64,000 bases of DNA, taken from sequence record NC_054922.1, one strand, 5' to 3'. This DNA is from Escherichia phage vB_EcoM_KAW1E185. This document shows positions 1,683 to 54,451 of this stretch, one piece after another. The notes under the pieces were generated by a model. That model saw only the letters and a program-made list of their open reading frames with translations. It searched no databases and had not been told where the DNA came from. Position numbers and translations under genes: made by a program. The number at the start of each line of letters is the position of its first letter. Position 1 is the stretch's first letter.

Positions 1683-3248
1683 ATGACTATCAAAACTAAA
1701 GCTGAACTTTTGAACAAATGGAAACCATTACTGGAAGGTGAAGGTTTACCGGAAATTGCTAATAGCAAACAAGCGATTATCGCTAAAATCTTTGAAAACC
1801 AGGAAAAAGATTTCCAGACAGCTCCAGAGTACAAAGACGAAAAAATCGCTCAGGCGTTCGGTTCTTTCTTAACAGAAGCTGAAATCGGTGGTGACCACGG
1901 TTACAACGCTACTAACATCGCTGCTGGTCAGACTTCTGGCGCAGTAACTCAGATTGGCCCAGCTGTTATGGGTATGGTACGTCGTGCTATTCCTAACCTG
2001 ATTGCTTTCGATATTTGCGGTGTTCAGCCGATGAACAGCCCGACTGGCCAGGTATTCGCACTGCGCGCAGTATATGGTAAAGACCCAATCGCTGCCGGTG
2101 CTAAAGAAGCATTCCACCCAATGTATGGTCCAGATGCAATGTTCTCTGGTCAGGGTGCTGCTAAGAAATTCACAGCTCTGGCTGCTAGCACACAAACCAC
2201 AGTAGGTGATATCTATACTCACTTCTTCCAGGACACTGGTACTGTGTATCTGCAGGCTTCTGCTCAAGTAACAATTAGTTCTACTGCAGATGATGCAGCT
2301 AAATTAGATGCTGAAATTAAGAAACAAATGGAAGCTGGTGCACTGGTAGAAATCGCTGAAGGTATGGCTACTTCTATCGCTGAACTTCAGGAAAGTTTCA
2401 ACGGTTCTACCGATAACCCATGGAATGAAATGGGCTTCCGTATCGATAAACAAGTTATCGAAGCTAAATCTCGTCAGCTGAAAGCTGCTTACTCTATCGA
2501 ATTAGCACAAGACCTCCGCGCTGTTCACGGTATGGATGCTGATGCTGAACTGTCTGGTATTCTGGCTACCGAAATCATGCTGGAAATCAACCGCGAAGTT
2601 GTTGATTGGATTAACTACTCAGCTCAGGTTGGTAAATCTGGTATGACCCTGACTCCGGGTTCTAAAGCTGGTGTATTTGACTTCCAGGATCCGATTGATA
2701 TTCGTGGTGCTCGCTGGGCGGGTGAATCCTTTAAAGCTCTGTTGTTCCAGATTGACAAAGAAGCAGTTGAAATTGCTCGTCAGACCGGTCGCGGTGAAGG
2801 TAACTTCATTATCGCTTCCCGTAACGTAGTTAACGTTCTGGCTTCAGTTGATACTGGCATTTCTTATGCTGCACAGGGTCTGGCTACCGGCTTTAACACT
2901 GATACTACCAAGTCAGTATTTGCTGGTGTTCTGGGTGGTAAATACCGTGTATATATCGACCAGTATGCTAAACAGGATTATTTCACTGTAGGTTATAAAG
3001 GTCCGAACGAAATGGATGCTGGTATTTACTATGCTCCATATGTAGCTCTGACTCCGCTGCGTGGTTCCGATCCGAAGAACTTCCAACCAGTAATGGGATT
3101 CAAAACTCGTTACGGTATCGGTATCAACCCATTTGCAGAATCCGCTGCTCAGGCTCCGGCTTCTCGCATCCAGAGCGGTATGCCTTCTATTCTGAATAGC
3201 CTTGGTAAAAACGCTTACTTCCGCCGTGTATATGTTAAAGGTATCTAA
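1683..3248 (+). CDS. 23: Major capsid protein gp23
   Basis: 521-aa ORF recognised as T4 gp23 precursor; strong biased codon usage typical of a highly expressed late gene. Confidence 0.97.
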   Translation: MTIKTKAELLNKWKPLLEGEGLPEIANSKQAIIAKIFENQEKDFQTAPEYKDEKIAQAFGSFLTEAEIGGDHGYNATNIAAGQTSGAVTQIGPAVMGMVRRAIPNLIAFDICGVQPMNSPTGQVFALRAVYGKDPIAAGAKEAFHPMYGPDAMFSGQGAAKKFTALAASTQTTVGDIYTHFFQDTGTVYLQASAQVTISSTADDAAKLDAEIKKQMEAGALVEIAEGMATSIAELQESFNGSTDNPWNEMGFRIDKQVIEAKSRQLKAAYSIELAQDLRAVHGMDADAELSGILATEIMLEINREVVDWINYSAQVGKSGMTLTPGSKAGVFDFQDPIDIRGARWAGESFKALLFQIDKEAVEIARQTGRGEGNFIIASRNVVNVLASVDTGISYAAQGLATGFNTDTTKSVFAGVLGGKYRVYIDQYAKQDYFTVGYKGPNEMDAGIYYAPYVALTPLRGSDPKNFQPVMGFKTRYGIGINPFAESAAQAPASRIQSGMPSILNSLGKNAYFRRVYVKGI

Positions 3249-3263
3249 TCTTTGACGATTTAA

Positions 3264-3290
3264 GGGACCTTCGGGTCCCTTTAGTTGTTT
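3264..3290 (+). terminator. Rho-independent terminator after gene 23: GGGACC-UUCG-GGUCCC hairpin plus T-run
   Basis: Perfect 6-bp GC stem with UUCG tetraloop at 3264-3279 followed by T-rich tract. Confidence 0.65.
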
Positions 3291-3296
3291 TTATGG

Positions 3297-3304
3297 TATA
3301 AATA
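3297..3304 (+). promoter_or_regulatory. T4-type late promoter TATAAATA for gene 24
   Basis: Exact TATAAATA 28 nt upstream of the gene 24 ATG. Confidence 0.6.
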
Positions 3305-3331
3305 AATCATATAAACCAAAAGGAAAGCGCA

Positions 3332-8049: not shown

Positions 8050-8062
8050 AATATTTCCTCAG

Positions 8063-8070
8063 TATAAATA
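8063..8070 (+). promoter_or_regulatory. T4-type late promoter TATAAATA upstream of uvsW
   Basis: Exact TATAAATA 30 nt upstream of the uvsW ATG; uvsW is late-transcribed in T4. Confidence 0.55.
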
Positions 8071-8099
8071 TAGATATATTTATTACATGGTATTTAGAC

Positions 8100-9611
8100 A
8101 TGACTGACATTAAAGTACATTTTTATGATTTTAGTCACGTGAGAATTGATTGTGAAGAAAGTACATTTCATGAACTCCGTGATTTCTTTAGCTTTGAAGC
8201 TGATGGGTATCGTTTTAATCCGAAGTACAAATATGGCCACTGGGATGGACGAATCCGTCTTTTAGATTATAATCGTCTTCTTCCATTCGGCTTAGTCGGG
8301 CAAATTAAAAAGTTCTGTGATAACTTTGGCTATAAAGCCTGGATTGACCCACAAATTAACGAAAAAGAAGAATTATCAAGAAAAGATTTTGATGAATGGC
8401 TTTCTAAATTAGAAATCTATTCAGGAAATAAAAGAATTGAACCACACTGGTATCAAAAAGATGCAGTGTTCGAAGGATTAGTTAATCGTCGTAGAATTCT
8501 TAATCTTCCAACATCTGCAGGTAAATCTTTAATTCAAGCTTTGCTTGCGCGATATTATTTGGAAAATTATGAAGGTAAAATTCTTATCATTGTTCCAACA
8601 ACTGCTCTGACAACTCAGATGGCTGATGACTTCGTCGACTATCGTTTATTCAGTCATGCAATGATAAAGAAAATTGGCGGCGGAGCATCAAAAGATGATA
8701 AATATAAAAATGATGCACCAGTCGTTGTTGGTACATGGCAAACTGTAGTTAAACAACCGAAAGAATGGTTCTCACAGTTTGGAATGATGATGAATGATGA
8801 ATGTCATCTTGCTACAGGAAAAAGTATTTCATCTATCATATCAGGTTTAAATAACTGCATGTTCAAATTCGGTTTGTCTGGTTCATTACGTGATGGCAAA
8901 GCCAATATCATGCAGTATGTTGGAATGTTTGGTGAAATATTTAAGCCAGTAACGACTTCTAAATTAATGGAAGATGGACAAGTAACTGAGCTAAAAATTA
9001 ATAGTATTTTTCTTCGCTATCCCGATGAGTTCACTACTAAATTAAAGGGAAAAACTTATCAAGAAGAAATAAAAATTATTACTGGGCTTAGTAAAAGAAA
9101 TAAATGGATTGCTAAATTAGCTATTAAGCTTGCGCAAAAAGATGAAAACACTTTTGTCATGTTTAAACATGTATCACATGGTAAAGCTATTTTCGATTTA
9201 ATTAAAAATGAATACGATAAAGTTTATTACGTATCAGGGGAAGTTGATACCGAAACACGCAACGTAATGAAAACCTTAGCTGAAAACGGTAAAGGAATAA
9301 TTATAGTAGCTAGTTATGGTGTATTTTCTACTGGTATTTCAGTTAAAAATCTGCATCACGTTGTTTTAGCGCACGGTGTTAAATCAAAAATCATTGTATT
9401 ACAAACAATAGGTCGCGTATTACGTAAGCATGGTTCTAAAACAATCGCAACGGTCTGGGACCTCATTGATGATTGTGGTGTTAAGCCAAAATCTGCTAAT
9501 ACGAAAAAGAAATACGTTCATTTGAACTATCTTTTAAAACATGGCATTGATCGTATTCAGCGCTACGCAGATGAAAAATTTAATTACGTAATGAAAACAG
9601 TTAATTTATAA
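8100..9611 (+). CDS. uvsW: UvsW RNA-DNA / DNA-DNA helicase
   Basis: 503-aa ORF with Walker A-like PTSAGKS and DECH helicase motifs; recognised as T4 UvsW. Confidence 0.92.
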   Translation: MTDIKVHFYDFSHVRIDCEESTFHELRDFFSFEADGYRFNPKYKYGHWDGRIRLLDYNRLLPFGLVGQIKKFCDNFGYKAWIDPQINEKEELSRKDFDEWLSKLEIYSGNKRIEPHWYQKDAVFEGLVNRRRILNLPTSAGKSLIQALLARYYLENYEGKILIIVPTTALTTQMADDFVDYRLFSHAMIKKIGGGASKDDKYKNDAPVVVGTWQTVVKQPKEWFSQFGMMMNDECHLATGKSISSIISGLNNCMFKFGLSGSLRDGKANIMQYVGMFGEIFKPVTTSKLMEDGQVTELKINSIFLRYPDEFTTKLKGKTYQEEIKIITGLSKRNKWIAKLAIKLAQKDENTFVMFKHVSHGKAIFDLIKNEYDKVYYVSGEVDTETRNVMKTLAENGKGIIIVASYGVFSTGISVKNLHHVVLAHGVKSKIIVLQTIGRVLRKHGSKTIATVWDLIDDCGVKPKSANTKKKYVHLNYLLKHGIDRIQRYADEKFNYVMKTVNL

Positions 9612-18517: not shown

Positions 18518-20574
18518 TACATCTTAAACTTTTTAGACATTCCGTCGATGTTAACCAAAGAAGCTAAGATTTGAGAAACTTCGTTTTCCTCTTCTTTTGA
18601 TTCTTCTACAAGGAATTGATTAAATCCAGTCATTGGACGAACTTCACCAGTTTCCATCAGATGGTCGCCATCATATACCGATTCTTCTAATTGTTCAGAA
18701 GGAGGAACGATTGTGCCTTCGATTAAATACTTGTTATAAGCAGTTTCTTTCATCATGTACGTGCTCACTTTATTAATCTTCAGCAAAATTCCACGCGGTA
18801 GAATAACTTCAGCTTCTGTTGCTATTCCGAGACTTCCTGGATATACAACATTAACTTTATGAGCTCCATCAATTGCCCATCCTATTTGAACTTTAACGTA
18901 TTCAGGATTTTCTTTATACGCTCTTATTTCGTTTGGATTAATAGTTATTCCTTCTTCATTTTTATCAACCGTTAATTCGTTACGAGCTTCTGGTTCTAAA
19001 AGACCAATACCAGCATGTGTAATTCCAAAACGCCCAAAAATGATAGGAGTTAAAGAAGTAGATACAAAATTTCTGAAATAGAACACTTTATTTTTAACTA
19101 GCGCTTCGTATATAGGAGCAGTCATACTTTGAGCACGATAAACTGTAATGCCTTCCGGTATGCGGTCACCATTTTCAAAAGCTGAATCTAAATTATTTAT
19201 AGCAGATTCAATTTCTTTTTCACTCATTACATCATATCGTTCTGGATTGTAACGACCTAAAAGAAGATTATTGATGTCAGTATATCCTGAACCACAATAC
19301 TCTCTAATGCCGCGCTTTTGTGATGGAGTATATTTAGAACCATCACGGGCAATAGTAATATCAATCATTGGACCTGCACCAATTCCAGAAAAACTATAAA
19401 TCATTCTTTTGAGGAATTTAGTTTTTGCTGCGTTCCAGGAATTTTTAGTCATTTCTTCCCAGACTTCATCTGGCTGCCCTTTACGAGTTTTATTATGTTT
19501 ATCAAGCCAATTATCTTTATATTCTTCAAAGAGTTGATTAACAGCTGCTGCGTATTTCTCTAAACATTTTATTGAAGTAGTTGGTTCATTTTTAATCGCA
19601 TTAAGAATTACATCTTTAATTTTTTCAGAAACTTCATTAACCTCACTTTTTGAAAAGAATTTATAGTCATAATGAAGTTCATTCGCAGTTCCTTCGGCAA
19701 TAATTTTTGCTGCCTTAGTTTTAGAAGCTAATGAATTAATTCCAAGCTTCATTTCTTCTGCTTCGGGAATTAAAGGAGCGGTAGCAGGTTTATTGAAATT
19801 AGCTGCGGTAGATTCATACTTCTGGAATAATTCACTTTCAAATCTAGAAGATTCCAATGATTGACTTTGCGCAATTGCTCTACGGGAAATTTTAACTTTA
19901 ACGATTACAGCTTGGTCAGAACGTTTATCATTTTCTTGTGCAATAGATGCTGCAATTGCCTCATTTTTAGTTACTTGAGCTCCAGTATCTTTATTGATAT
20001 AAACATCGCCGACTTTCGATTCAACTTTAGTAAAGAGCTCGGTACTAATTTCCGGAACTCCTGGAATGTCTTCTAGTGATACATTTTTGCGATGTATAAG
20101 AATATATGCATACTTTTTATCATAATCCCAGAGTTCCTTAAGAAGGACGTATCTGCCACCTGAACGACTACGGATAAGTCTATCAGCAATAACTTGAATT
20201 TGTCGAGCTTGACCAGCGGTTTTAGACTTAAGAATACGAAGCATACAAGCATCAATTTTATACTGACGCATTGTTTGCATTGCAACAGTAAAAACTGAAT
20301 TGATATAATTAATTGGGCTTGGACCGAGACCTTTTAATTTAGCAATTGAACCTTTGGCAGTTAATGTAAAAGGAACAATATGCATCATTTTATCGCCCAT
20401 CTTTAAATCGCGATTAGTATCACCTCCAGATGTATAGGTGCATAAACGAAAGCCTGGTTGTTCAATTGCATCATCAACACGAACTGAAAAAATTTGTGGT
20501 ATTTTCTTCTTTGGATTTAAGTTTGTAATCGGAAGAGTAGTATCTTCGTCAAATAATTCTGTAATGAGTTCCAT
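18517..20574 (-). CDS. alt: Alt, packaged ADP-ribosyltransferase
   Basis: About 685-aa ORF recognised as T4 Alt; start placed at the second Met to match the T4 N-terminus MELITELF. Confidence 0.88.
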   Translation of the reverse strand: MELITELFDEDTTLPITNLNPKKKIPQIFSVRVDDAIEQPGFRLCTYTSGGDTNRDLKMGDKMMHIVPFTLTAKGSIAKLKGLGPSPINYINSVFTVAMQTMRQYKIDACMLRILKSKTAGQARQIQVIADRLIRSRSGGRYVLLKELWDYDKKYAYILIHRKNVSLEDIPGVPEISTELFTKVESKVGDVYINKDTGAQVTKNEAIAASIAQENDKRSDQAVIVKVKISRRAIAQSQSLESSRFESELFQKYESTAANFNKPATAPLIPEAEEMKLGINSLASKTKAAKIIAEGTANELHYDYKFFSKSEVNEVSEKIKDVILNAIKNEPTTSIKCLEKYAAAVNQLFEEYKDNWLDKHNKTRKGQPDEVWEEMTKNSWNAAKTKFLKRMIYSFSGIGAGPMIDITIARDGSKYTPSQKRGIREYCGSGYTDINNLLLGRYNPERYDVMSEKEIESAINNLDSAFENGDRIPEGITVYRAQSMTAPIYEALVKNKVFYFRNFVSTSLTPIIFGRFGITHAGIGLLEPEARNELTVDKNEEGITINPNEIRAYKENPEYVKVQIGWAIDGAHKVNVVYPGSLGIATEAEVILPRGILLKINKVSTYMMKETAYNKYLIEGTIVPPSEQLEESVYDGDHLMETGEVRPMTGFNQFLVEESKEEENEVSQILASLVNIDGMSKKFKM

Positions 20575-28095: not shown

Positions 28096-28328
28096 AGTAC
28101 GCCATACACCCTTTGTGCTTCAACTAATCCATCAAAATCCAGTTTAAGATGTGTTATTTGGTCACCATCACCTGGATTCACAATTACTAATACTGAACGA
28201 GGAGTTTCGGTAATAACACGAACCGATGTTTCTGGAAATCGTACAGAAACTTTATTTACCAATTCCTGAGCAAATAGTTTAACTTTTTCTTGGAATTCTT
28301 TAACAGTAATTGGTTTTTCACTTAGCAT
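28092..28328 (-). CDS. Hypothetical protein, T4 cd.2-like
   Basis: 78-aa ORF. Confidence 0.45.
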   Translation of the reverse strand: MLSEKPITVKEFQEKVKLFAQELVNKVSVRFPETSVRVITETPRSVLVIVNPGDGDQITHLKLDFDGLVEAQRVYGVL

Positions 28329-28849
28329 GTTGATCCCAGCTCCTTACTTTCAACGTTTTTAACTAATTTGACAGAAACTAATTCGGCATCTTGGGTAATC
28401 ATTACCGGGCCTTCTTCATACTCTTCAAGATATTCTAGAGCTTTCTTTTTAGCTTCTTCCTTCGTATCAGTTTGAGCATAGATATAAAACATACAACCAG
28501 TAATACCTACTACTTTCCACTTAATTTCTTTATCAGTTTTAATTTCAAATTTACTGATAGAGTCATCTTTTTGAACTTCTTCGAAAAAATAATATTCTGA
28601 CATATAAGTAATTGAAAATAGCGGGCTATCTTTATAAGATTCGCCCATTACATCAACAGCTTTATACCAGCAATCGTCAATTTCGCGTTTAATGCTAATA
28701 ACATTTTTCGCAGGATCTATTTTTACTTTAAATGAATTTTCCCCAATAAACTGAGAAATTCGTTTATTAGCCCCGCAAGTTTCATTAAAAATATCTTTAT
28801 ATCCAGCTTTAAAGTGATAAACCTTATCTTCTTCAAACCATTTGCTCAT
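28322..28849 (-). CDS. Hypothetical protein, T4 cd.3-like
   Basis: 175-aa ORF preceded by an early promoter. Confidence 0.45.
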   Translation of the reverse strand: MSKWFEEDKVYHFKAGYKDIFNETCGANKRISQFIGENSFKVKIDPAKNVISIKREIDDCWYKAVDVMGESYKDSPLFSITYMSEYYFFEEVQKDDSISKFEIKTDKEIKWKVVGITGCMFYIYAQTDTKEEAKKKALEYLEEYEEGPVMITQDAELVSVKLVKNVESKELGSTC

Positions 28850-29390: not shown

Positions 29391-30805
<1,415 letters not shown>

Positions 30806-32237: not shown

Positions 32238-33825
<1,588 letters not shown>

Positions 33826-33832
33826 AATAAAA

Positions 33833-33848
33833 TGGGCCTTGCGGCCCA
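33833..33848 (-). terminator. Hairpin (GNRA loop) plus U-run between nrdB stop and denA start
   Basis: Minus-strand UGGGCC-GCAA-GGCCCA followed by UUUUAUU immediately 5' of the denA ATG. Confidence 0.45.
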
Positions 33849-33852
33849 CTCC

Positions 33853-35022
33853 TTAAAAATATTTTTTAAAACTCATCATAACTTTATCATCAACGTCATT
33901 ATCAATCTGTGCTACAAGATAAGATGACAGTTCTACTTCTTGCGGTGCAGATTGAACATTATCAGAATTAAGATATTCACGAATCCAAGGATACGGATGT
34001 TTAACCGGAGCATCAGTAATTGGGCATGGAAGACCACACTGTTTCATACGAGATACAGTTAAGTAATCAATAAAGCTCCACATGCTATTTGTATTTAATC
34101 CAGGAACATCGCCATCTTTAAATAAATGAACTGCCCAGTCTTTTTCTTGACGGTTAACTTCCATGAAAATATCAACTGCTTCTTGTTCACACTCTTGAGC
34201 AATTTTAACCCATTCATCACCATCAGTGCCAAGTTGAAGTTGACGAATAATATATTGGGTGCCTTTAAGGTGAAGCTGCTCATCACGTGCAATGAACTTC
34301 ATAATCTTGGCATTACCTTCCATGATTTCCATGTTCTTATGGAAGTTAAAGGTACATGCGAAAGATACATAAAAACGAATAGCTTCCAATGCGTTGATTA
34401 CGTGCAGGCAGAGGTAAAGAGATTTCATTAGTGCTCGTTTAGTACATTCAACAACTTTGCCTAGCTCTTCTTTACGAAATCCTTCTGATAAAATTCCTTC
34501 ATAATCTTCAACCGCATTCTGATATTCACGAGTCTTAACTAGAACGTCATCATAATAACGACCAATAGATTCAGCACGTTTCATGATAGCTTTATCTAAT
34601 ACAATCTCATCAAATACCTTTGATGGATCAGTATAAAGATTTCGCATGATATGAGTATATGAACGACTGTGAATAGTTTCGCTAAAAGTCCATGTAGCAA
34701 CCCATGTATCAAGACTTGGGTCTGAAATTAACGACATAAGTACAGCAGACGGCGCACGACCCTGAATGCTATCCAAAAGTGATTGATACTTCAGGTTATT
34801 AGTAAAAATATCTTGCTGATATTGAGGAAGCTTGTTAAATTGTGCAGCATCCATCATCAAGTTTACTTCTTCAGGACGCCAGAAAAATGATAAAGATTTC
34901 TCAATAAGTTCTTCAAATACTCTATGCCGTTGAATATCATATCGAGCTAAACCCAATCCAGAACCAAAAAACATCGGCTCAGTCAAAATATTAACAGGGG
35001 ATGTATTAAAAACTGTACTCAT
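33853..35022 (-). CDS. nrdB: Ribonucleotide reductase small subunit NrdB (uninterrupted)
   Basis: 389-aa continuous ORF recognised as T4 NrdB; no intron interrupts the frame. Confidence 0.93.
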   Translation of the reverse strand: MSTVFNTSPVNILTEPMFFGSGLGLARYDIQRHRVFEELIEKSLSFFWRPEEVNLMMDAAQFNKLPQYQQDIFTNNLKYQSLLDSIQGRAPSAVLMSLISDPSLDTWVATWTFSETIHSRSYTHIMRNLYTDPSKVFDEIVLDKAIMKRAESIGRYYDDVLVKTREYQNAVEDYEGILSEGFRKEELGKVVECTKRALMKSLYLCLHVINALEAIRFYVSFACTFNFHKNMEIMEGNAKIMKFIARDEQLHLKGTQYIIRQLQLGTDGDEWVKIAQECEQEAVDIFMEVNRQEKDWAVHLFKDGDVPGLNTNSMWSFIDYLTVSRMKQCGLPCPITDAPVKHPYPWIREYLNSDNVQSAPQEVELSSYLVAQIDNDVDDKVMMSFKKYF

Positions 35023-35660
35023 TTAGAATCCTTAAATTTACATTTATCATAATGCCATCTTAGAGCATTGCCTTTATTAACCTTCTTGCCACAATGCGGA
35101 CAAGGCGGATACTCTATACTTTGCTTAGTTCTCAAAGAAATCAAATCACGAGTTTCTTTAGTATGAGGAACATCTCTTGTTGGAGAGATTGTACCATACA
35201 TCGGATTAAGCACGCCGACTTTAGCAGCAGCTATATTCTTTTTAGCTTCTTCGGTTTTAGGTTTTCTCATGCGAGCTAAATGCTCTTTGGTAAATTTCCT
35301 TCCTTTAAGAGCTCTACTTATCTTTTCCCTGGTTTCTATAGAAACTTCACGTCCTATAGCAGCTTCAGATAAACGTCGTCTACCTAATTCGTATAGTTGA
35401 GAAGAAATTTTATATGAGCGATTTTTACCAGTCAAGCACATTAAACCAAAAGCTTTCTTTAATCCTGGGGTGTCATATATTTTGCATAAAAGCCAATGAG
35501 CTATAAAATGCTCTCTACCTGTTAATTCAACTAAATTTTCTTTATCATCAGAACCTCCCATACATCTAGGGATTATATGATGAGTCTCTTTATATTCAGA
35601 TAAAGGTTCCCGAGCCTGAGCTCGGGAAATTAGGTCATTATAGATTTTTTGATAATTCAT
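35019..35660 (-). CDS. mobE: HNH homing endonuclease (MobE-like)
   Basis: 213-aa ORF with HNH motif (HHIIPRCMGGSDDKENLVELTGREHFIAHW) and C-terminal CPHC zinc-finger-like element; inserted between nrdA and nrdB with ATGA couplings. Confidence 0.7.
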   Translation of the reverse strand: MNYQKIYNDLISRAQAREPLSEYKETHHIIPRCMGGSDDKENLVELTGREHFIAHWLLCKIYDTPGLKKAFGLMCLTGKNRSYKISSQLYELGRRRLSEAAIGREVSIETREKISRALKGRKFTKEHLARMRKPKTEEAKKNIAAAKVGVLNPMYGTISPTRDVPHTKETRDLISLRTKQSIEYPPCPHCGKKVNKGNALRWHYDKCKFKDSK

Positions 35661-37924
35661 TACAATTTACACGCTGCACAATCTTCAGCTTTTGGAGTTT
35701 CTATTTCATAATCATCAGTACCAGAACCATCGCGGGTATTATGATAATAGAAATTTTTTCCGCCAAAATACCAAAAATACAAAAGGTCATCAATCATTAT
35801 TGACATTGGAACCTTGCCTTTAGGGAAGATTTGGGGGTCATAGTATGTATTCGCCGAAGCTGATTGACAAACCCATTTCAGCATAATAGCTACCTGCGTA
35901 AGATAAGGTTTATTACCTTTCTTAGCTAATTTCCATGTATAGTCGTAAAGGTCTATGTTATGCTCAATATTGGGCACGACCTGATTAAAGGAGCCCTCTT
36001 TTGATTCTTTAACAGAGACTGGTCCACGTGGAGGCTCGATACCGTTTGTACTGTTAGAAACTTGGGAAGATGACTCACATGGCATAAGTGCTGATAATGT
36101 GCTATTACGGATGCCAAAGAGCTTAAGGTCTTCCCGCAGCGACGACCAGTCACAAACGTATTTTGGAGCTGCGATTTGGTCAATCTTTTTATTGTACCAG
36201 TCGATAGGTAATTCGCCTCGAGACCAACGAGTGTCTGAATAATATTCGCAAGGTCCTTTTTCTTTGGCGAGCTTAATGGATGCTTTAATGAGTCCATACT
36301 GCAATCTCTCAAATAGTTCATGTGTTAAATCGTTAGCATCTTCATAAGAAGCAAAATTACTTGCCAGCCAAGCTGCATAGTTAGTAACACCTACGCCGAG
36401 GTTTCGACGCTTTTTAGCTTTTTCTGCTTCAGGAACTGGATATCCTTGGTAGTCCAAAAGATTATCAAGAGCACGAACTTGAACTTCTGCCAATTCATTA
36501 ATTTTATCTTGGTCTTGCCAATCAAAGTTATCTAACACAAATGCAGATAACGTACACAATCCAATTTCAGCATCAGGACTATTCACGTCATTTGTTGGAA
36601 TAGCAATTTCACAACACAAGTTGCTCTGACGAATAGGTGCCTTTTCACGAATAAATGGAGTATAGTTATTCGTATTATCAATGAACTGTACATAAATCCT
36701 TGCTGTTCCTGAGCGTTCAGTCATTAGCAATTCAAACAGCTCACGGGCTTTAATACGCTTTTTACGAATATTAGGGTCTTTTTCTGCGGCTTCATATAAT
36801 TCACGGAAACGGTCTTGGTCTTTAAAATAAGAATAATAAAGCTCACCACCCATTTCATGTGGACTGAACAAAGTAATGTAATCGTTCTTTCCGAATCGTT
36901 CCATCATCAAATCATTCAGCTGAACACCATAATCCATATGACGAATTCGGTTTTCTTCTACGCCTTTGTTATTTTTCAAAACGAGAAGATTTTCAACTTC
37001 CAAATGCCAAATAGGATAATAAGCAGTAGCAGCGCCGCCACGAATTCCACCCTGTGAGCATGATTTAACAGCAGTCTGAAAATGTTTCCAAAAAGGAATA
37101 ACACCAGTATGACGTACTTCACCTGTACCAATCTTAGAACCTTCGGCACGAATCATACCAACGTTAATACCAATTCCAGCGCGTTTGGAGATATATTCAA
37201 CAATTGAAGCGGAAGCCTTATTGATAGACTTCAGCGAATCACCTGCCTCAATAACAACACATGAACTAAACTGTCGAGTCGGAGTACGACAACCAGCCAT
37301 AATAGGAGTTGGCAGTGAAATCTGTCGAGTAGATACTGCTTCATAAAAACGGATAACATGTTTTAATCTATCAACAGGTTCATCTTGATGCAGTGCCATT
37401 CCAATAGCCATAAATGCAAACTGTGGAGTTTCATAAATTTGACCAGTGGTTTTATCTTTAACTAGATATTTTTCTTTTAATTGCATCGCCCCGGAATAAG
37501 TAAATTCCATATCCCGCTCGTGCTTAATTTTTGATTCTAAAAATGTAATTTCTTCCGCAGAATATTTTGACAATAATTCAGGGTCATATTTACCTGCATT
37601 TACGCAATAAGAAATATGGTCAATAAATGAACGCGGTTCATACTGCCCGTAAACATGCTTACGAAGAGCAAACATTAAACAGCGTGCAGCTACATATTGA
37701 TAATCAGGCTCTTCAACCGAAATAGAATTCGCAGCAGCCTTAATGACAATAGTCTGAATATCATCAGTTGTCATTCCATCACGGAGATAAGATTTAATAT
37801 TTTCATATAATTCATAAGGATCTACTGATGTTCCCTCAGCTGCCCAAGATAAAACTTTAATAATTTTTTGTGGATCAAAGCTCTGAGAAACACCACTACT
37901 TTTGATAACATTAATTAATTGCAT
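35660..37924 (-). CDS. nrdA: Ribonucleotide reductase large subunit NrdA
   Basis: 754-aa ORF recognised as T4 NrdA. Confidence 0.95.
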   Translation of the reverse strand: MQLINVIKSSGVSQSFDPQKIIKVLSWAAEGTSVDPYELYENIKSYLRDGMTTDDIQTIVIKAAANSISVEEPDYQYVAARCLMFALRKHVYGQYEPRSFIDHISYCVNAGKYDPELLSKYSAEEITFLESKIKHERDMEFTYSGAMQLKEKYLVKDKTTGQIYETPQFAFMAIGMALHQDEPVDRLKHVIRFYEAVSTRQISLPTPIMAGCRTPTRQFSSCVVIEAGDSLKSINKASASIVEYISKRAGIGINVGMIRAEGSKIGTGEVRHTGVIPFWKHFQTAVKSCSQGGIRGGAATAYYPIWHLEVENLLVLKNNKGVEENRIRHMDYGVQLNDLMMERFGKNDYITLFSPHEMGGELYYSYFKDQDRFRELYEAAEKDPNIRKKRIKARELFELLMTERSGTARIYVQFIDNTNNYTPFIREKAPIRQSNLCCEIAIPTNDVNSPDAEIGLCTLSAFVLDNFDWQDQDKINELAEVQVRALDNLLDYQGYPVPEAEKAKKRRNLGVGVTNYAAWLASNFASYEDANDLTHELFERLQYGLIKASIKLAKEKGPCEYYSDTRWSRGELPIDWYNKKIDQIAAPKYVCDWSSLREDLKLFGIRNSTLSALMPCESSSQVSNSTNGIEPPRGPVSVKESKEGSFNQVVPNIEHNIDLYDYTWKLAKKGNKPYLTQVAIMLKWVCQSASANTYYDPQIFPKGKVPMSIMIDDLLYFWYFGGKNFYYHNTRDGSGTDDYEIETPKAEDCAACKL

Positions 37925-38241: not shown

Positions 38242-38458
38242 ATTGTTTTTCCGTTAAAACAGTAATATCGTAGTAACAGTCAGAAGAAGTTTTAACTGTG
38301 GAAATTTTATTATCAAAATACTCACGAGTCATTTTATGAGTATAGTATTTTTTACCATAAATGGTAATAGGCTGTTCTGGTCCTGGAACTTCTAACTCGC
38401 TTGGGTTAGGAAGTGTAAAAAGAACAACGCCAGAAGTATCTTTAAATCGTAAAATCAT
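38195..38458 (-). CDS. Hypothetical protein, T4 nrdA.2-like
   Basis: 87-aa ORF. Confidence 0.45.
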
Positions 38459-39315
38459 ATTGCCATTTTCCCTTTAATTGCTGGATGCGATTCATAATTT
38501 TCAAGGATAAAATCTTTCGGTTTCATGTATTCAGTTAACCAGTAAAGCTGTGTTTCGGTGTCACAATTTCCAAACTCTATAGGCCAATCAATTTTAAGTT
38601 CACATAGTTCTTTAGGCTCACGACGTAAAATTTCTTTACATTGCTCAGTATGATTCATATAGATGTGAGTATTACCACCAGAAAATATCAAATCTCCTGG
38701 GATAAGATTACACATCTTAGCCACAATATGCGTCAAGGCAGCGTACGAGGCAATGTTGAATGGCAAGCCCAAGAAAACATCTACACTTCTTTGGTACCAT
38801 TGTAAATCAAGATAACCATTACGCACATTAAACTGATAGAACATATGACAGGGCGGTAATGCCATTTGATTGATTTCAGCTGGATTCCATGCTGAAACGA
38901 TTTGACGTCGATCAGTTGGTAATTTTTTAATACGATCAATAGTTTCAACTAATTGATCCACACCACCGAAATCACGCCATTGTTTACCGTATATAGGACC
39001 AAGTTCACCACTATGATATCCTAGGTCTTTAGCCTGGTTTTCATAGTTATCGTCCCAAATAGTTTTACCTTGAATAAGACTACCATGAGTGCGAAGACGT
39101 AAATCATTAACATTGGTAGAACCGGAAATAAACCATAGAAGCTCAGCAATGCATGCATTCCAGGCGAGCTTCTTAGTCGTTACTGCAGGAAAACCTTTAG
39201 TTAAATCCCAGCGTAATTTAGTACCGAACAAAGCAATTGTTCCTGTGCCTGTTCGGTCATCGGTTTCATAACCATTTTCAAAAATGTCTTTAATTAAATC
39301 TTGGTATTGTTTCAT
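38455..39315 (-). CDS. td: Thymidylate synthase (uninterrupted)
   Basis: 286-aa continuous ORF with catalytic PPCH motif; recognised as T4 Td; no intron. Confidence 0.95.
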
Positions 39316-39359: not shown

Positions 39360-39707
39360 TTAATACGGTTTAGCATCAAATTTTCTCTCAATTTCAGGCG
39401 TGAAATATAATTCTTTACCGCGTTTGGAAAAGCGACCAATAATATGATAATTATTCTCATCAAACGTGATATTACCAATATCCATAGCTTTCAACCAAAT
39501 ATCGATATTTCTATCCAGCTTTATGTCAAAATTCCAATACGGAGAACTATTACCGAAAATACTGCAAGCGGATTCAGTGAAACAACTGCTATAAATCTTG
39601 TCTTTAGGAACTACTAATTGATAGACACCTTTAATAAACTGAGGACCCTGCCACTTTGGCTGTTTCGCGTCTTTTTCTAATAGAATAGGGTAATAATTAA
39701 AATTCAT
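39360..39707 (-). CDS. Hypothetical protein between frd and td
   Basis: Track ORF of 119 aa begins with GTG; the internal ATG at 39705-39707 gives 115 aa; no recognisable motifs. Confidence 0.4.
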   Translation of the reverse strand: MNFNYYPILLEKDAKQPKWQGPQFIKGVYQLVVPKDKIYSSCFTESACSIFGNSSPYWNFDIKLDRNIDIWLKAMDIGNITFDENNYHIIGRFSKRGKELYFTPEIERKFDAKPY

Positions 39708-39727
39708 ATTTTCCGCCACGCGTTATT

Positions 39728-40557
<830 letters not shown>

Positions 40558-40568
40558 ATTATCTCCTA

Positions 40569-40901
40569 TTAAAAAGGATCAGGAACATATCCACTAGCTT
40601 TAATCATTTTAACTAATGTTACCATTCCTTTGTTAACTGCTTGTGAGATTTCATCAAAAACTTCATCATTAAAAAGTTCTAGCACACCCTTCTGAACTTT
40701 TAATTTACAGCCAACAATTTCGTCATCGCCTATAGTAAATTCATTACCGCCAATTCCACCGAAAAACTTAATTACCCCAGTTAACTGTCTTCCACGAGAA
40801 TATGGGTCATGTGATAAAGTAATATGAGTCACCCCAGGTACAGTTTTAAATTGACAGCGAATGTTTACTTGAGAAATTCCAGTTACATGAATGTCAGACA
40901 T
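40569..40901 (-). CDS. Hypothetical protein, T4 frd.2-like
   Basis: 110-aa ORF. Confidence 0.5.
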   Translation of the reverse strand: MSDIHVTGISQVNIRCQFKTVPGVTHITLSHDPYSRGRQLTGVIKFFGGIGGNEFTIGDDEIVGCKLKVQKGVLELFNDEVFDEISQAVNKGMVTLVKMIKASGYVPDPF

Positions 40902-42906: not shown

Positions 42907-42989
42907 TTTTATTTCCTTTTTAATTTAATTAACAGTTGGTGCTATGACGATGTATGACCTCATAGCTGGTCAGTGAGATAATTATAATC

Positions 42990-42997
42990 TATTTATA
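42990..42997 (-). promoter_or_regulatory. Late promoter TATAAATA in the gene 32 upstream region
   Basis: Reverse complement gives TATAAATA about 85 nt upstream of the gp32 ATG. Confidence 0.4.
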
Positions 42998-43005
42998 ATA
43001 AGCAA

Positions 43006-43659
43006 TTAATACTTACAAGATTTCACAGTTTCAATGAAAACACTTTTAGCTTTCTGTGAATCAATATTTAAAATTTTTCTATAAGCCTTTAACTTTATAG
43101 AATAATTATTCCAGACTAAATTATCAGTCTGTTCATCATGTTTATCAATTATATTTAAAAATGAATCAAGCAAGATAAACGTCTCAAACGAAATTATGTT
43201 CGACTGAAGCAGTTTAAAAATATAACTTGATTGAACTTTTGGATTATATTCAAAAATTTCTTTAAAAGCAGAAACTTCAACTTTTTTACTAAAATAATAA
43301 ATGTTGCGAATATCTTCTTCAAACTTAAATTTAATTTGCTTTAAGCGTCCGATATATTCACGATAAAACACAAGTGCATCAGCGTCAGAGATGTCACCAA
43401 TCCAAGCATCTTGGTTAGCAACCAAATTACTTATAAAGATTAAAGCAAGTTCCTTTAATTTATATTTTTCTGATAACTTCTGGAAAAAATACTTATCCCT
43501 TCGCTTTTGATAAGCGGCATCAGACACCCGCATGCACCAATTATACTTAATTACATCATACTTTCCATTCATATGTTGTTTTATCATTAAGTATAATTTA
43601 TAAACTGATTTACCATCAATGTATCTTTCACCACCAGCAGGCATGCGGAGTTTAATCAT
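43006..43659 (-). CDS. 59: gp59 helicase loader
   Basis: 217-aa ORF; T4 length and position directly upstream of gene 32, with no intervening seg gene. Confidence 0.9.
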   Translation of the reverse strand: MIKLRMPAGGERYIDGKSVYKLYLMIKQHMNGKYDVIKYNWCMRVSDAAYQKRRDKYFFQKLSEKYKLKELALIFISNLVANQDAWIGDISDADALVFYREYIGRLKQIKFKFEEDIRNIYYFSKKVEVSAFKEIFEYNPKVQSSYIFKLLQSNIISFETFILLDSFLNIIDKHDEQTDNLVWNNYSIKLKAYRKILNIDSQKAKSVFIETVKSCKY

Positions 43660-51178: not shown

Positions 51179-54100
51179 ATGGCTACTTTAAAACAAATAC
51201 AATTTAAAAGAAGCAAAACCGCAGGTGCACGTCCTGCTGCTTCAGTATTAGCCGAAGGTGAATTGGCTATAAACTTAAAAGATAGAACAATTTTTACTAA
51301 AGATGACACAGGAAATATCATCGATTTAAGCATTTCTACTGGCGGTAATATCAGTGGTAATATCACTCAAACTGGTGATTATACACAGACTGGAAAATTT
51401 AATTTAATTGGTCCGCAAATTGTAGCAAGCGGTGGATATATTGAGTTTAATTATCGTACTACTGGAAGTGGGGCTTGGTCCGGTCAACATACTGCGAAAG
51501 CTCCAATTTTTGTAGATTTAAGCTCAGCTACTTCCACATCTGAATATAATCCTATAATTAAACAGCGCTTTAAAGATGGAACTTTTTCATTAGGTACTTT
51601 AGTTTCTGAAGGTTCGTTGAAGATTCATTATATCAATGAATCTGGCGATTCGAAATATTGGACGTTTCGACGTGACGGCGGATTTACTGTTGACGGTGGA
51701 GGTTTAGCAGTATCAGGAGGTAGTATAACTACATCTGGAAATATCGCAGCTATTGGAAATATTACTTCGCCTCAGATTAATACTAAAAATATTATTTTAG
51801 ATACAAAAGCATTTGGACAATACGATTCGCAATCATTAGTTCAATATGTTTATCCTGGAACAGGCGAAGAAAATGGTATAAACTATCTTCGTAAAGTTCG
51901 AGCTAAATCAGGCGGTACAATTTATCATGAATTAGCTTCTGCGCAAACCGGAAAAAGTGATGAACTTTCTTGGTGGACTGGTAATACAGCCGTTAATAAA
52001 CAAATGGGTCTTCGTAATGATGGGGCTTTAGTATTACGACGCTCACTCGCAATTGGTACAATTACAACAGATGAAAACATTAATAACTACGGCTCCGCTG
52101 GAGCAATGGGCGAATGTTATATAGTTATCGGTGATGCATCAACAGGCTTATCATACAAAAAAACTGGAGTATATGATTTAGTTGCTAGTGGTCTTTCTTT
52201 AGCATCTATTACTCCTGATAGTTTCCGTAGTACCCGTAAAGCGATTTTTGGTCGTTCCGAGGACCAAGGTACAACATGGATTATGCCTGGAACCAACGCC
52301 GCGTTTTTATCGGTTCAAACACAAGCTGATGAAAACACTGCTGGAGACGGCCAGACGCATATTGGCTATAACTCAGGCGGAAAAATGAACCACTATTTCC
52401 GTGGTAAAGGCAAAACTAATATTAATACTCAAGAAGGCATGGAAGTTAACCCGGGTATTTTGAAATTGGTAACTGGCTCTAATAATGTAATGTTTTATGC
52501 TGATGGCGGTATTACATCTGTTAAGCAGCTTTCAATATATAATGGCATATATTTAGCAGCTAATAATTCTACTGCTGGGCTAACATTCGCTCCAACTACT
52601 ACAATTGATGGTACTAAGCAAATTTTGTGGGAAGGCGGTACTCGTGCTGGGCAGAATAAAAGCTATGTAACTGTTAAAGCATGGGGTAATTCATTTAACG
52701 CATCTGGCGATCGTAATCGTGAAACGGTTTTTGAAGTAGCTGATGGACAAGGATATTATTTTTATTCACAGCGTGTGGCTCCAAGTGGCTCTGAAACTAC
52801 TGGGCCTGTTGTAACCCAGTTCAATGGACAAGTTAATGCTAGAGGAAGTATTATTACTGACGGAAGTTTTAAAGTTAATGGATTAAGCACTTTAGTCGGT
52901 AATGTTACCATGTCTAATGGTTTGTTTGTCCAAGGTGGTTCTTCTATTACTGGACAAGTAAAAATTGGTGGAACTGTTGATGCATTAAGAATTTGGAATG
53001 CCGAATACGGTGCTATTTTCCGTCGCTCAGAAACAGCATTACATATTATCCCGACTCCTAAAGATGCCGGTGAAAGTGGTGGAATAAGTAATCTCCGCCC
53101 ACTTAGTATTAGCCTTAATAATGGTATGGTGCAAATGCGTCATTCCGTTACATTAGGTGATGATGGTGCAGGCGGTAATATGGTGACGGTTGATAATGAT
53201 TCTAAAGTTATGGTAATGACGACTAATAGCCGTATTAGTCCTAACTTCCGTATGCAAATTGGACGGTCGTCTTATATTGATGTGGAATGTACTGATGCTG
53301 TGAGACCTGCTGGAGCCGGTTCTTTTGCTTCACAGAATAACGAAAACGTTCGCGCTCCGTTCTATATGAATATTGATAGAACAGATACAAGCACTTATGT
53401 TCCTATTGTGAAACAAAGATACGTTCAAAATAATAGTTGCTATTCTATTGGTACTTTAATTAATGGTGGTAACTTTAGAGTTCATTATCATGAAGGCGGA
53501 GACGGCGTTTCTACTGGTGCTATTATAAAGGATCTTGGATGGGAATTTAATAAAAACGGTGATTTTTATTCTCCTGGTAAATTAGGCGCTGGAAATATTA
53601 GAATAGGTACTGATGGTAATATTACTGGCGGAACTGGTAACTTTGCTAACTTGAACACAACTATCGAATCATTAAAAACCGATATTGTATCGAGTTACCC
53701 AATCGGTGCTCCTATTCCATGGCCAACGGATACTCCTCCTGACGGTTACGCTATTATGGAAGGCCAGACTTTTGATAAGTCTGCATACCCAAAATTGGCT
53801 ATGGCTTACCCATCTGGCGTAATTCCAGATATGCGCGGGCAAACTATTAAAGGTAAACCAAGTGGTCGAGCTGTATTAAGCGCAGAAGCCGATGGTGTTA
53901 AGGCTCATAGCCATAGTGCATCGGCTTCAAGTACTGACTTGGGTACTAAAACTACGTCGAGTTTTGATTATGGTACTAAGACGACAAGTAGCTTTGACTA
54001 TGGCACTAAGACTAGCAATACCACAGGTAACCACTCTCATACTGTAAGCGGTACTACGAGTTCTGCTGGTGCACACCAACATGCGCGCTCAGGTCCTCAG

Positions 54101-54451
54101 ATACAAGCCGGCATACCCAATAACATATTCTATGACGGATATAATAGTGTAGGTGCAAACGCCAACGCTAAATTCACTGGAACCGTGAACGGTGCTACTG
54201 TAGGGTCGAATATAGCCAAAACTTCTTCAGACGGTGCTCATACTCATACTTGGTCTGGTACTACAAGCACTACAGGTAACCATGCTCACACAGTAGGTAT
54301 TGGTGCTCATACCCATACTGTAGGTATCGGTGCTCATACCCACACGGTAGCAATTGGCTCGCATGGTCATACTATCACTGTAAATAGTACAGGTAATACA
54401 GAAAACACGGTTAAAAACATTGCTTTTAACTATATCGTTCGTTTAGCATAA
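51179..54451 (+). CDS. 37: Long tail fibre distal subunit / receptor-binding protein gp37
   Basis: 1090-aa ORF; N-terminal part gp36-like, C-terminal tip with repeated His-x-His boxes ([16 protein letters not shown]...) as in T4-type gp37; longer than the 1026 aa I recall for T4. Confidence 0.9.

Follow-up and report, generated by a model that had tools for sequence, protein, structure and literature searches.

The window analysed here is a stretch of 64,000 nucleotides from the genome of Escherichia phage vB_EcoM_KAW1E185 (NC_054922.1). It is a Tequatrovirus (T4-like) segment, collinear with approximately 103.2-168.9 kb of the T4 genome. The ribonucleotide reductase region of the window and its surroundings contain the following genes:

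38455-39315, minus strand: td, uninterrupted
between td and nrdA, minus strand: nrdA.2 and nrdA.1
35660-37924, minus strand: nrdA, large subunit of class Ia ribonucleotide reductase, 754 aa, assigned by Pfam and collinearity
35019-35660, minus strand: mobE, T6-type allele, a free-standing HNH/NUMOD3 homing endonuclease gene, 213 aa
33853-35022, minus strand: nrdB, small subunit of class Ia ribonucleotide reductase, 389 aa, uninterrupted
33415-33849, minus strand: denA, GIY-YIG endonuclease II, assigned by Pfam GIY-YIG and PHROG 1111
beyond denA, minus strand: rnlA and, farther on, pseT

The nrdA product matches the Pfam families ATP-cone, Ribonuc_red_lgN and Ribonuc_red_lgC, and the gene is collinear with nrdA of T4 and T6 at 93-100% nucleotide identity. 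The nrdB product matches NCBIfam NF006576 with 486.7 bits (cut-off 346) over aa 3-385, as well as Pfam Ribonuc_red_sm (PF00268), and shares 92% of its amino acids with NrdB of T6 and 90% with that of T2. The position of denA in the window is that of the annotated denA in T4 and T6. This gene encodes a host-DNA-degrading nuclease, is the usual neighbour of nrdB, and is not a homing endonuclease gene.

The 213-aa reading frame between nrdA and nrdB is a genuine gene rather than an open frame that arose by chance, since it matches both Pfam HNH (PF01844; 24.4 bits, cut-off 21.4, covering aa 21-44) and NUMOD3 (PF07460; 34.5 bits, cut-off 20.4) as well as PHROG 655, ‘homing endonuclease’ (E=1e-66), and evolves with a dN/dS of 0.09-0.19, as described below. 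Phage vB_EcoM_Lutter encodes a protein identical to its product (100%), and the annotated MobE of T6 shares 98% of its residues over the full length, while full-length identity to T4 MobE is 71% by tblastn and 77% by MAFFT alignment. The original prediction, made from the nucleotide sequence alone, had described this frame as a mobE-like HNH endonuclease gene overlapping both of its neighbours; the profile matches and the identities to T6 and T4 MobE bear out the assignment, and the overlaps are considered further on. Three parts of the protein can be distinguished:

35496-35582, minus strand: HNH catalytic motif, aa 27-55, HHIIPRCMGGSDDKENLVELTGREHFIAH, located by Pfam and orthologue alignment
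35271-35495, minus strand: central module, aa 56-130, comprising a linker and the first NUMOD3 region, which separates T6-type from T4-type alleles
35040-35102, minus strand: C-terminal CxxC...H...C motif, aa 187-207, CPHCGKKVNKGNALRWHYDKC, located by orthologue alignment

Eight orthologues were aligned, four of them from Tequatrovirus (the window, T6, HMD-9 and T4) and the others from phages Boboto, P479, LF82-1 and Mokit. Residues His28, Asn42, His51 and His55 show no variation among the eight, and the C-terminal motif is identical throughout, apart from a single K to N replacement in Acinetobacter phage Mokit. The pattern of Cys and His residues suggests that this C-terminal motif is zinc-finger-like. 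A sequence search of solved structures returned weak matches to the HNH motif (E 0.2-0.6), 6me0 and 6ghc aligning through their HNH motifs at E = 0.2-0.5, and I-HmuI was not among the matches. The Bacillus phage enzymes I-HmuI and I-HmuII likewise combine an HNH nuclease with an extended DNA-binding region, and they nick a single strand (PMC2790892); however, they are intron-encoded, whereas mobE of the window is free-standing and gave no significant match in solved structures.

The boundaries of mobE with its two neighbours are defined by the following elements, all read directly from the sequence:

35657-35662, minus strand: TAATGA, overlap of the nrdA stop and the mobE start
35029-35033, minus strand: AAGGA, Shine-Dalgarno sequence of nrdB, located inside mobE
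35019-35022, minus strand: ATGA, overlap of the mobE stop and the nrdB start

The nrdA/mobE junction reads ...AAATTG TAATGA ATTAT, so that the TAA of nrdA and the ATG of mobE overlap by one base; a second stop codon, TGA, follows directly after the TAA within the same TAATGA. The corresponding UAAUGA arrangement of T4 nrdA/mobE has been reviewed as suggestive of translational coupling (PMC2988022), and by analogy the overlap in the window suggests that mobE translation may be coupled to that of nrdA. At the other end, the mobE/nrdB junction reads ...TCTAAATGAGT, and the TGA of mobE and the ATG of nrdB share four bases (ATGA). The overlaps proposed for both sides of the gene are therefore present in the sequence. 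The junction was also compared with those of T4 and of the mobE-less phage T2H, in which no gene lies between nrdA and nrdB, just a spacer of 51 nt. Since this spacer occupies the same position, mobE of the window replaces it to the base, from the nrdA stop to the nrdB start.

In T4, nrdB is interrupted by a group I intron carrying I-TevIII, and alignment with T4 places the corresponding site in the window as follows:

34355-34356, minus strand: empty insertion site of the T4 nrdB group I intron (I-TevIII carrier), located by T4 alignment

The T4 intron is 598 nt long (L002:2457-3054), whereas the window is contiguous across this site, TTCGCAT/GTACC at 34356/34355, and its nrdB frame holds no spliced-out insertion. 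An Rfam scan of the whole 64 kb detected no group I intron and no other RNA family, and a tblastn search with T4 I-TevIII found no match in the window. A hidden intron or an I-TevIII remnant within nrdB is rejected on all three of these grounds, in agreement with the earlier description of nrdB as one 389-aa frame free of both.

The same description had presented the combination of a mobE insertion with an absence of introns as an unusual mix of mobile elements, a view that comparison with other phages did not support. Phage T6 has the identical layout, its annotated mobE being of equal length and overlapping its neighbours in the same way and its nrdB lacking an intron, and the nrd region of T6 (AY262134.2) was already part of the published mobE analysis (PMC2790892). 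The 4.6-kb stretch comprising nrdA, mobE, nrdB and denA matches 878 phage records; among the best 32 of these, at least 27 match over the whole 4.6 kb in one piece at 95-97% identity, and these records consequently carry mobE without the intron. The T6-type centre of mobE was found in 34 records, including those of T6 and LZ7, two phages that were reportedly sequenced for the original mobE surveys. Just five of these 34 records (SHFML-26 twice, HY03 twice, and vB_ECOLIGBLB0003) combine T6-type mobE with an nrdB intron. Some form of mobE occurs in 141 records, and the nrdB intron, at a coverage of at least 80%, in 118. The nrdA/nrdB locus has been studied since the 1980s-2000s, and mobE at this position in the T6 layout is already known and ordinary. 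It is the T4 state, with mobE and the nrdB intron together, that is less common, and T4, with its 15 homing endonucleases, has been singled out in the literature as exceptional within the T-even phages (PMC2790892).

Additional homing endonuclease genes that might have made the content of the window unusual were also sought and rejected. Searches by tblastn with T4 SegD, SegE, SegG, I-TevI and I-TevIII found none of them in the 64-kb window, and a motif scan of all window reading frames of at least 80 aa identified mobE as the sole homing endonuclease. The segments of the window that have no T4 match encode small proteins belonging to known phage families of unknown function, and no nuclease.

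Comparison of MobE proteins placed the differences between T6-type and T4-type alleles mainly in the centre of the gene. T6 MobE (AXN58263.1 in MH550421; also AY262134.2) lies at the same locus, has the same length of 213 aa and the same overlaps, and differs from the window protein at four amino acids; T6 also shares the intron-free nrdB and the nrdB nick-site allele of the window. A difference between the two phages is seen at td, which in T6 has an intron with I-TevI and in the window is uninterrupted. T4 MobE (232 aa; Wilson & Edgell 2009, PMC2790892) has the insertion site, the overlaps and a terminator hairpin in common with the window gene. In aa 1-55 it differs from the window protein at one position (residue 48, Gly in the window protein but Ala in the T4 one) and in the last 83 residues, aa 131-213, at two (aa 181-182), whereas the centres of the T4-type and T6-type proteins are approximately 35% identical, and T4 MobE has 19 extra residues there, forming a longer module with an extra NUMOD3-like repeat. 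The T4 nrdB is likewise unlike that of the window, having the defunct I-TevIII intron and a different nick-site allele.

The third form, RB3 MobE (243 aa, ABI48926.1), is found at the same locus and has a near-identical N-terminal HNH domain, including the hairpin, but is unrelated to the window protein after this domain, with 43% overall identity. The nick-site region of RB3 nrdB is T2-like, unlike that of the window, which suggests that RB3 MobE may have a different target. With the HNH domain (aa 1-55) near-identical across T4, T6 and RB3, mobE is, judging by these alignments, a modular gene. An origin of the T4 central module from another known mob gene was considered and rejected, as no close relative of the module was found outside T4-like strains, its best match there being below 48%. 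T6-type alleles are at least as frequent as T4-type ones, the respective centres occurring in 34 and 22 records, and it is the T6-type allele, not the T4-type, that is found across several Tevenvirinae genera.

The 5' end of mobE contains a further element, detected by a terminator scan:

35607-35628, minus strand: putative terminator hairpin in the mobE 5' end, with a 9-bp stem and a 4-nt loop, followed by CCTTTATCT

The hairpin has a predicted fold energy of -16.7 kcal/mol (z = -2.9). Its sequence is identical to that of T4, and in HMD-9, Boboto and P479 compensatory changes preserve the pairing. In T4, mobE lacks its own promoter and shares the transcript of nrdA, about 30-50% of the transcripts end at a stem-loop just downstream of the AUG, and a middle promoter of nrdB lies within the mobE 3' end (PMC2790892). 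By analogy with T4, the hairpin at 35607-35628 would serve as a mobE terminator.

The T4 MobE protein acts on nrdB of mobE-less phages, and the nick site in T2 was mapped at nrdB nt 122-126 (PMC2790892), corresponding to 34897-34901 of the window. The region homologous to the target was located by alignment:

34892-34909, minus strand: nrdB nt 114-131, homologous to the MobE nick region mapped in T2, in the variant form ACTTATTGAGAAATCTTT

This variant is identical to that of T6 and differs from the T2 sequence (TTTAACCGAAAAGCAGTT) at 10 of 18 bases. Differences between mobE carriers and mobE-less phages within nt 114-131 have been reported, together with an immunity model, and codon 42 of the window nrdB, AAA, belongs to the variants given there for phages with mobE (PMC2790892). 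The two types of carrier also differ from each other, since the target reads GAG AAA TCT TTA TCA in the window and T6 and GAG CGG CAG ATC AGT in T4. Between 35660 and about 34861, or approximately nt 160 of nrdB, the sequence of the window resembles that of T6 (95-100%); from there on it is closer to T2 than to T6. Such a boundary fits a co-conversion tract that may have begun at the nick site.

The distribution of the variant target allele was wider than that of T6-type mobE, with 55 records at a minimum identity of 95%, compared with 34. Strict linkage of the allele to T6-type mobE is ruled out by two mobE-less carriers. In Salmonella phage BCPSen_003, the T2 spacer is present in place of mobE and nt 1-90 of nrdB are identical to T2, while nt 91-150 form a window-like patch with the nick site at its centre, matching the window at 58 of 60 positions and T2 at 46 of 60. 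Klebsiella phage pKp20 also carries the variant allele and has no mobE. Because the allele is present in these two phages, its relation to immunity is a correlation only. The two genomes look like resistant empty sites, on our interpretation, and the patch in BCPSen_003 together with the tract boundary in the window suggests that conversion events were initiated at the nick site.

Selection on mobE was estimated by comparing the window gene with those of T6, HMD-9, Boboto, LF82-1 and P479, all of which are intact 213-aa frames at the same locus, and the dN/dS was 0.09-0.19. Boboto belongs to Jiaodavirus and P479 to Gaprivervirus, and the LF82-1 record has no genus assigned. All eight collected orthologues, including the 210-aa form at nrdA/nrdB of Acinetobacter phage Mokit, are intact and located between the two reductase genes, with the HH...N...H and CxxC...H...C patterns preserved. 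The low dN/dS and the intact orthologues argue for a protein that probably still works, over a remnant that persists for the sake of nrdB signals. Such a remnant, domesticated and inactive, would be retained for the ribosome-binding site and promoter of nrdB in its 3' end; the middle promoter of nrdB inside mobE would select against its deletion (PMC2790892), the nrdB Shine-Dalgarno sequence is indeed located within the gene, and T4 has another defunct endonuclease, I-TevIII, at the same locus. However, the dN/dS of 0.09-0.19 holds across the whole frame and not at the 3' end alone, several genera share unchanged HNH residues and the same Cys/His motif, and conversion starting at the nick site is suggested both by the short T6-like patch of BCPSen_003 and by the point at which the T6-like tract of the window stops. 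An inactive mobE in the window is regarded as quite improbable.

The properties of the locus make it very probable that the 213-aa frame is a T6-type mobE, a free-standing homing endonuclease gene working as in T4. To our knowledge, T4 MobE is the only MobE tested experimentally, and the data on the nick site, mobility and the terminator all come from T4; by this analogy, the transcription pattern, nicking activity and homing described here for the T6-type protein are the most likely ones. The gene would have no promoter of its own and would be transcribed together with nrdA, with its translation coupled at the UAAUGA overlap and its level held low by the weak terminator hairpin just within the 5' end. 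The 3' end would provide the ribosome-binding site of nrdB and, as in T4, might also supply its middle promoter. In a mixed infection, MobE is expected to nick the non-coding strand of nrdB in the mobE-less phage near nt 122-126, a mechanism presumed to be shared with T4 MobE, and recombinational repair from the mobE-carrying genome would then introduce a copy of mobE, along with neighbouring markers, into the recipient. The phage's own nrdB would presumably escape nicking, since the sequence of its site differs.

For the T4 protein, nicking of one specific strand in mobE-less nrdB has been demonstrated, as has preferential inheritance in crosses, the activity in vivo only, and the authors did not discount a double-strand break or action through another nuclease (PMC2790892). 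MobE would, in the latter case, not be a nuclease itself but would act as regulator or as cofactor for a different phage endonuclease responsible for the nick in nrdB, an alternative stated by the authors of the T4 study, in which no activity of T4 MobE could be demonstrated in vitro (PMC2790892). For the window this seems extremely unlikely: the HNH motif of the protein is complete, deletion of the HNH motif abolished nicking in T4 (PMC2790892), and the 64-kb window holds no other homing endonuclease gene.

A different question is whether the T6-type nuclease, if active, has the specificity of the T4 enzyme. Its central DNA-binding module is different and 19 residues shorter, and could direct it to a different site or require a different spacing, in which case T6-type and T4-type enzymes might each attack the phage genomes that carry the other type. 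The low identity of the centres (about 35%) between near-identical flanks points in this direction, as do the nrdB targets of the two types, which differ mutually and from T2. On the other hand, both alleles occupy the same place, both come with changes within one and the same 18-nt stretch of nrdB, and both have the HNH domain and the C-terminal 83 residues in common, all of which argues for the same target region. A specificity unlike that of T4 MobE is considered rather unlikely, and activity as in T4 remains the preferred reading. With somewhat more confidence, although still only tentatively, it may be proposed that the T6-type MobE has its own spacing or specificity and that the ‘EKSL’ allele of nrdB, with Ser43 where T2 has Gln, is the determinant of immunity to it. 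If this proposal were true, the susceptible-empty, occupied and resistant-empty stages that make up a homing cycle would all be represented in the databases at a single locus, and natural allele pairs would be available for testing how specificity changes in HNH/NUMOD3 enzymes.

As a discovery the locus carries little weight, the site, regulation and nrdB target of T4 mobE having been described in 2009. It has modest value as a clean case of a homing endonuclease gene situated within an essential operon that is left undamaged. A mobE gene of Aeromonas phage Aeh1, also of the HNH mob type and tied to the aerobic ribonucleotide reductase genes (PMC2988022, PMC3045599), is by contrast inserted within nrdA and splits it (PMC2988022), whereas both nrdA and nrdB are intact in the window. 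The window also carries the allele that is widespread across genera, the T6-type, whereas the allele tested is the T4-type.

The gene mobE was the only homing endonuclease gene found within the 64-kb window. T4 carries segD in the interval of genes 23/24, segE in that of inh/uvsW and segG in that of genes 32/59; all three are absent from the window at the respective loci (3246-3331, 8050-8105 and 42907-43008). The td gene of the window (38455-39315) likewise contains no intron with I-TevI.

At least three modular alleles occur at the mobE locus, namely a T6-type of 213 aa, a T4-type of 232 aa and an RB3-type of 243 aa, located in the window and in the T4 (L002) and RB3 (L004) records as follows:

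35271-35495 of the window, minus strand: allele-distinguishing centre of mobE, T6-type
L002:3715-4413: T4-type mobE, 232 aa
L004:266-997: RB3-type mobE, 243 aa

The HNH domain is near-identical among the three types, while the DNA-binding parts differ. For the centre of the T4-type mobE, no close relative was found in the phage collection beyond T4-like strains.

From the start of mobE to approximately nt 160 of nrdB (34861, minus strand), the window is 95-100% T6-like, whereas further into nrdB (34561-34860, minus strand) it is 96-98% T2-like and only 80-95% T6-like. A mosaic boundary is located within 34561-35660 (minus strand). The nick-site allele of nrdB shared by the window and T6 is also present in two phages that have no mobE, Salmonella phage vB_Sen_BCPSen_003 (L012:1660-1870) and Klebsiella phage pKp20 (L013:1649-1862). 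In BCPSen_003 the allele takes up a patch some 60 nt long, at nt 91-150 of nrdB, and the surrounding spacer and 5' end of nrdB are identical to those of T2. Judging from this sequence pattern, the patch looks like a short conversion tract, by which resistance would have been gained without acquisition of the endonuclease gene.

A variable loop of about 35 aa in NrdB (aa 161-197; window 34432-34542, minus strand) has the MobE nick site to one side of it and the insertion site of the I-TevIII intron to the other. This loop is completely different, including indels, between the window, T6/T4 and T2. Apart from this loop, the NrdB proteins compared share more than 95% identity.

One further element was noted upstream of nrdB:

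35061-35069, minus strand: MotA-box-like sequence in the 3' end of mobE

It reads AATGCTCTA in the window and in Klebsiella phage Boboto, and AATGCTTTA in T4 and T6, and may be the mapped nrdB middle promoter.

Over most of the td gene (38461-39160, minus strand), DNA identity to the td genes of T2, T4 and T6 is only 60-85%, indicating that the window carries a divergent td allele. The protein encoded by the adjoining td.1 ORF (39360-39719, minus strand) is 100% identical to Td.1 of T2H; T4 has no td.1.

Additional differences from T4 comprise the following small ORFs, which fall in the unknown-function families PHROG 3710, 2364, 3183 and 3566:

28322-28849, 30485-30805 and 40312-40901, minus strand: ORFs of 175, 106, 81 and 110 aa with no T4 counterpart in place

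The match to T4 is missing or strongly diverged at 18537-19767 and 51346-54307, within the alt region and the distal tail-fibre gene 37 region, which are the usual variable loci among T-even phages.
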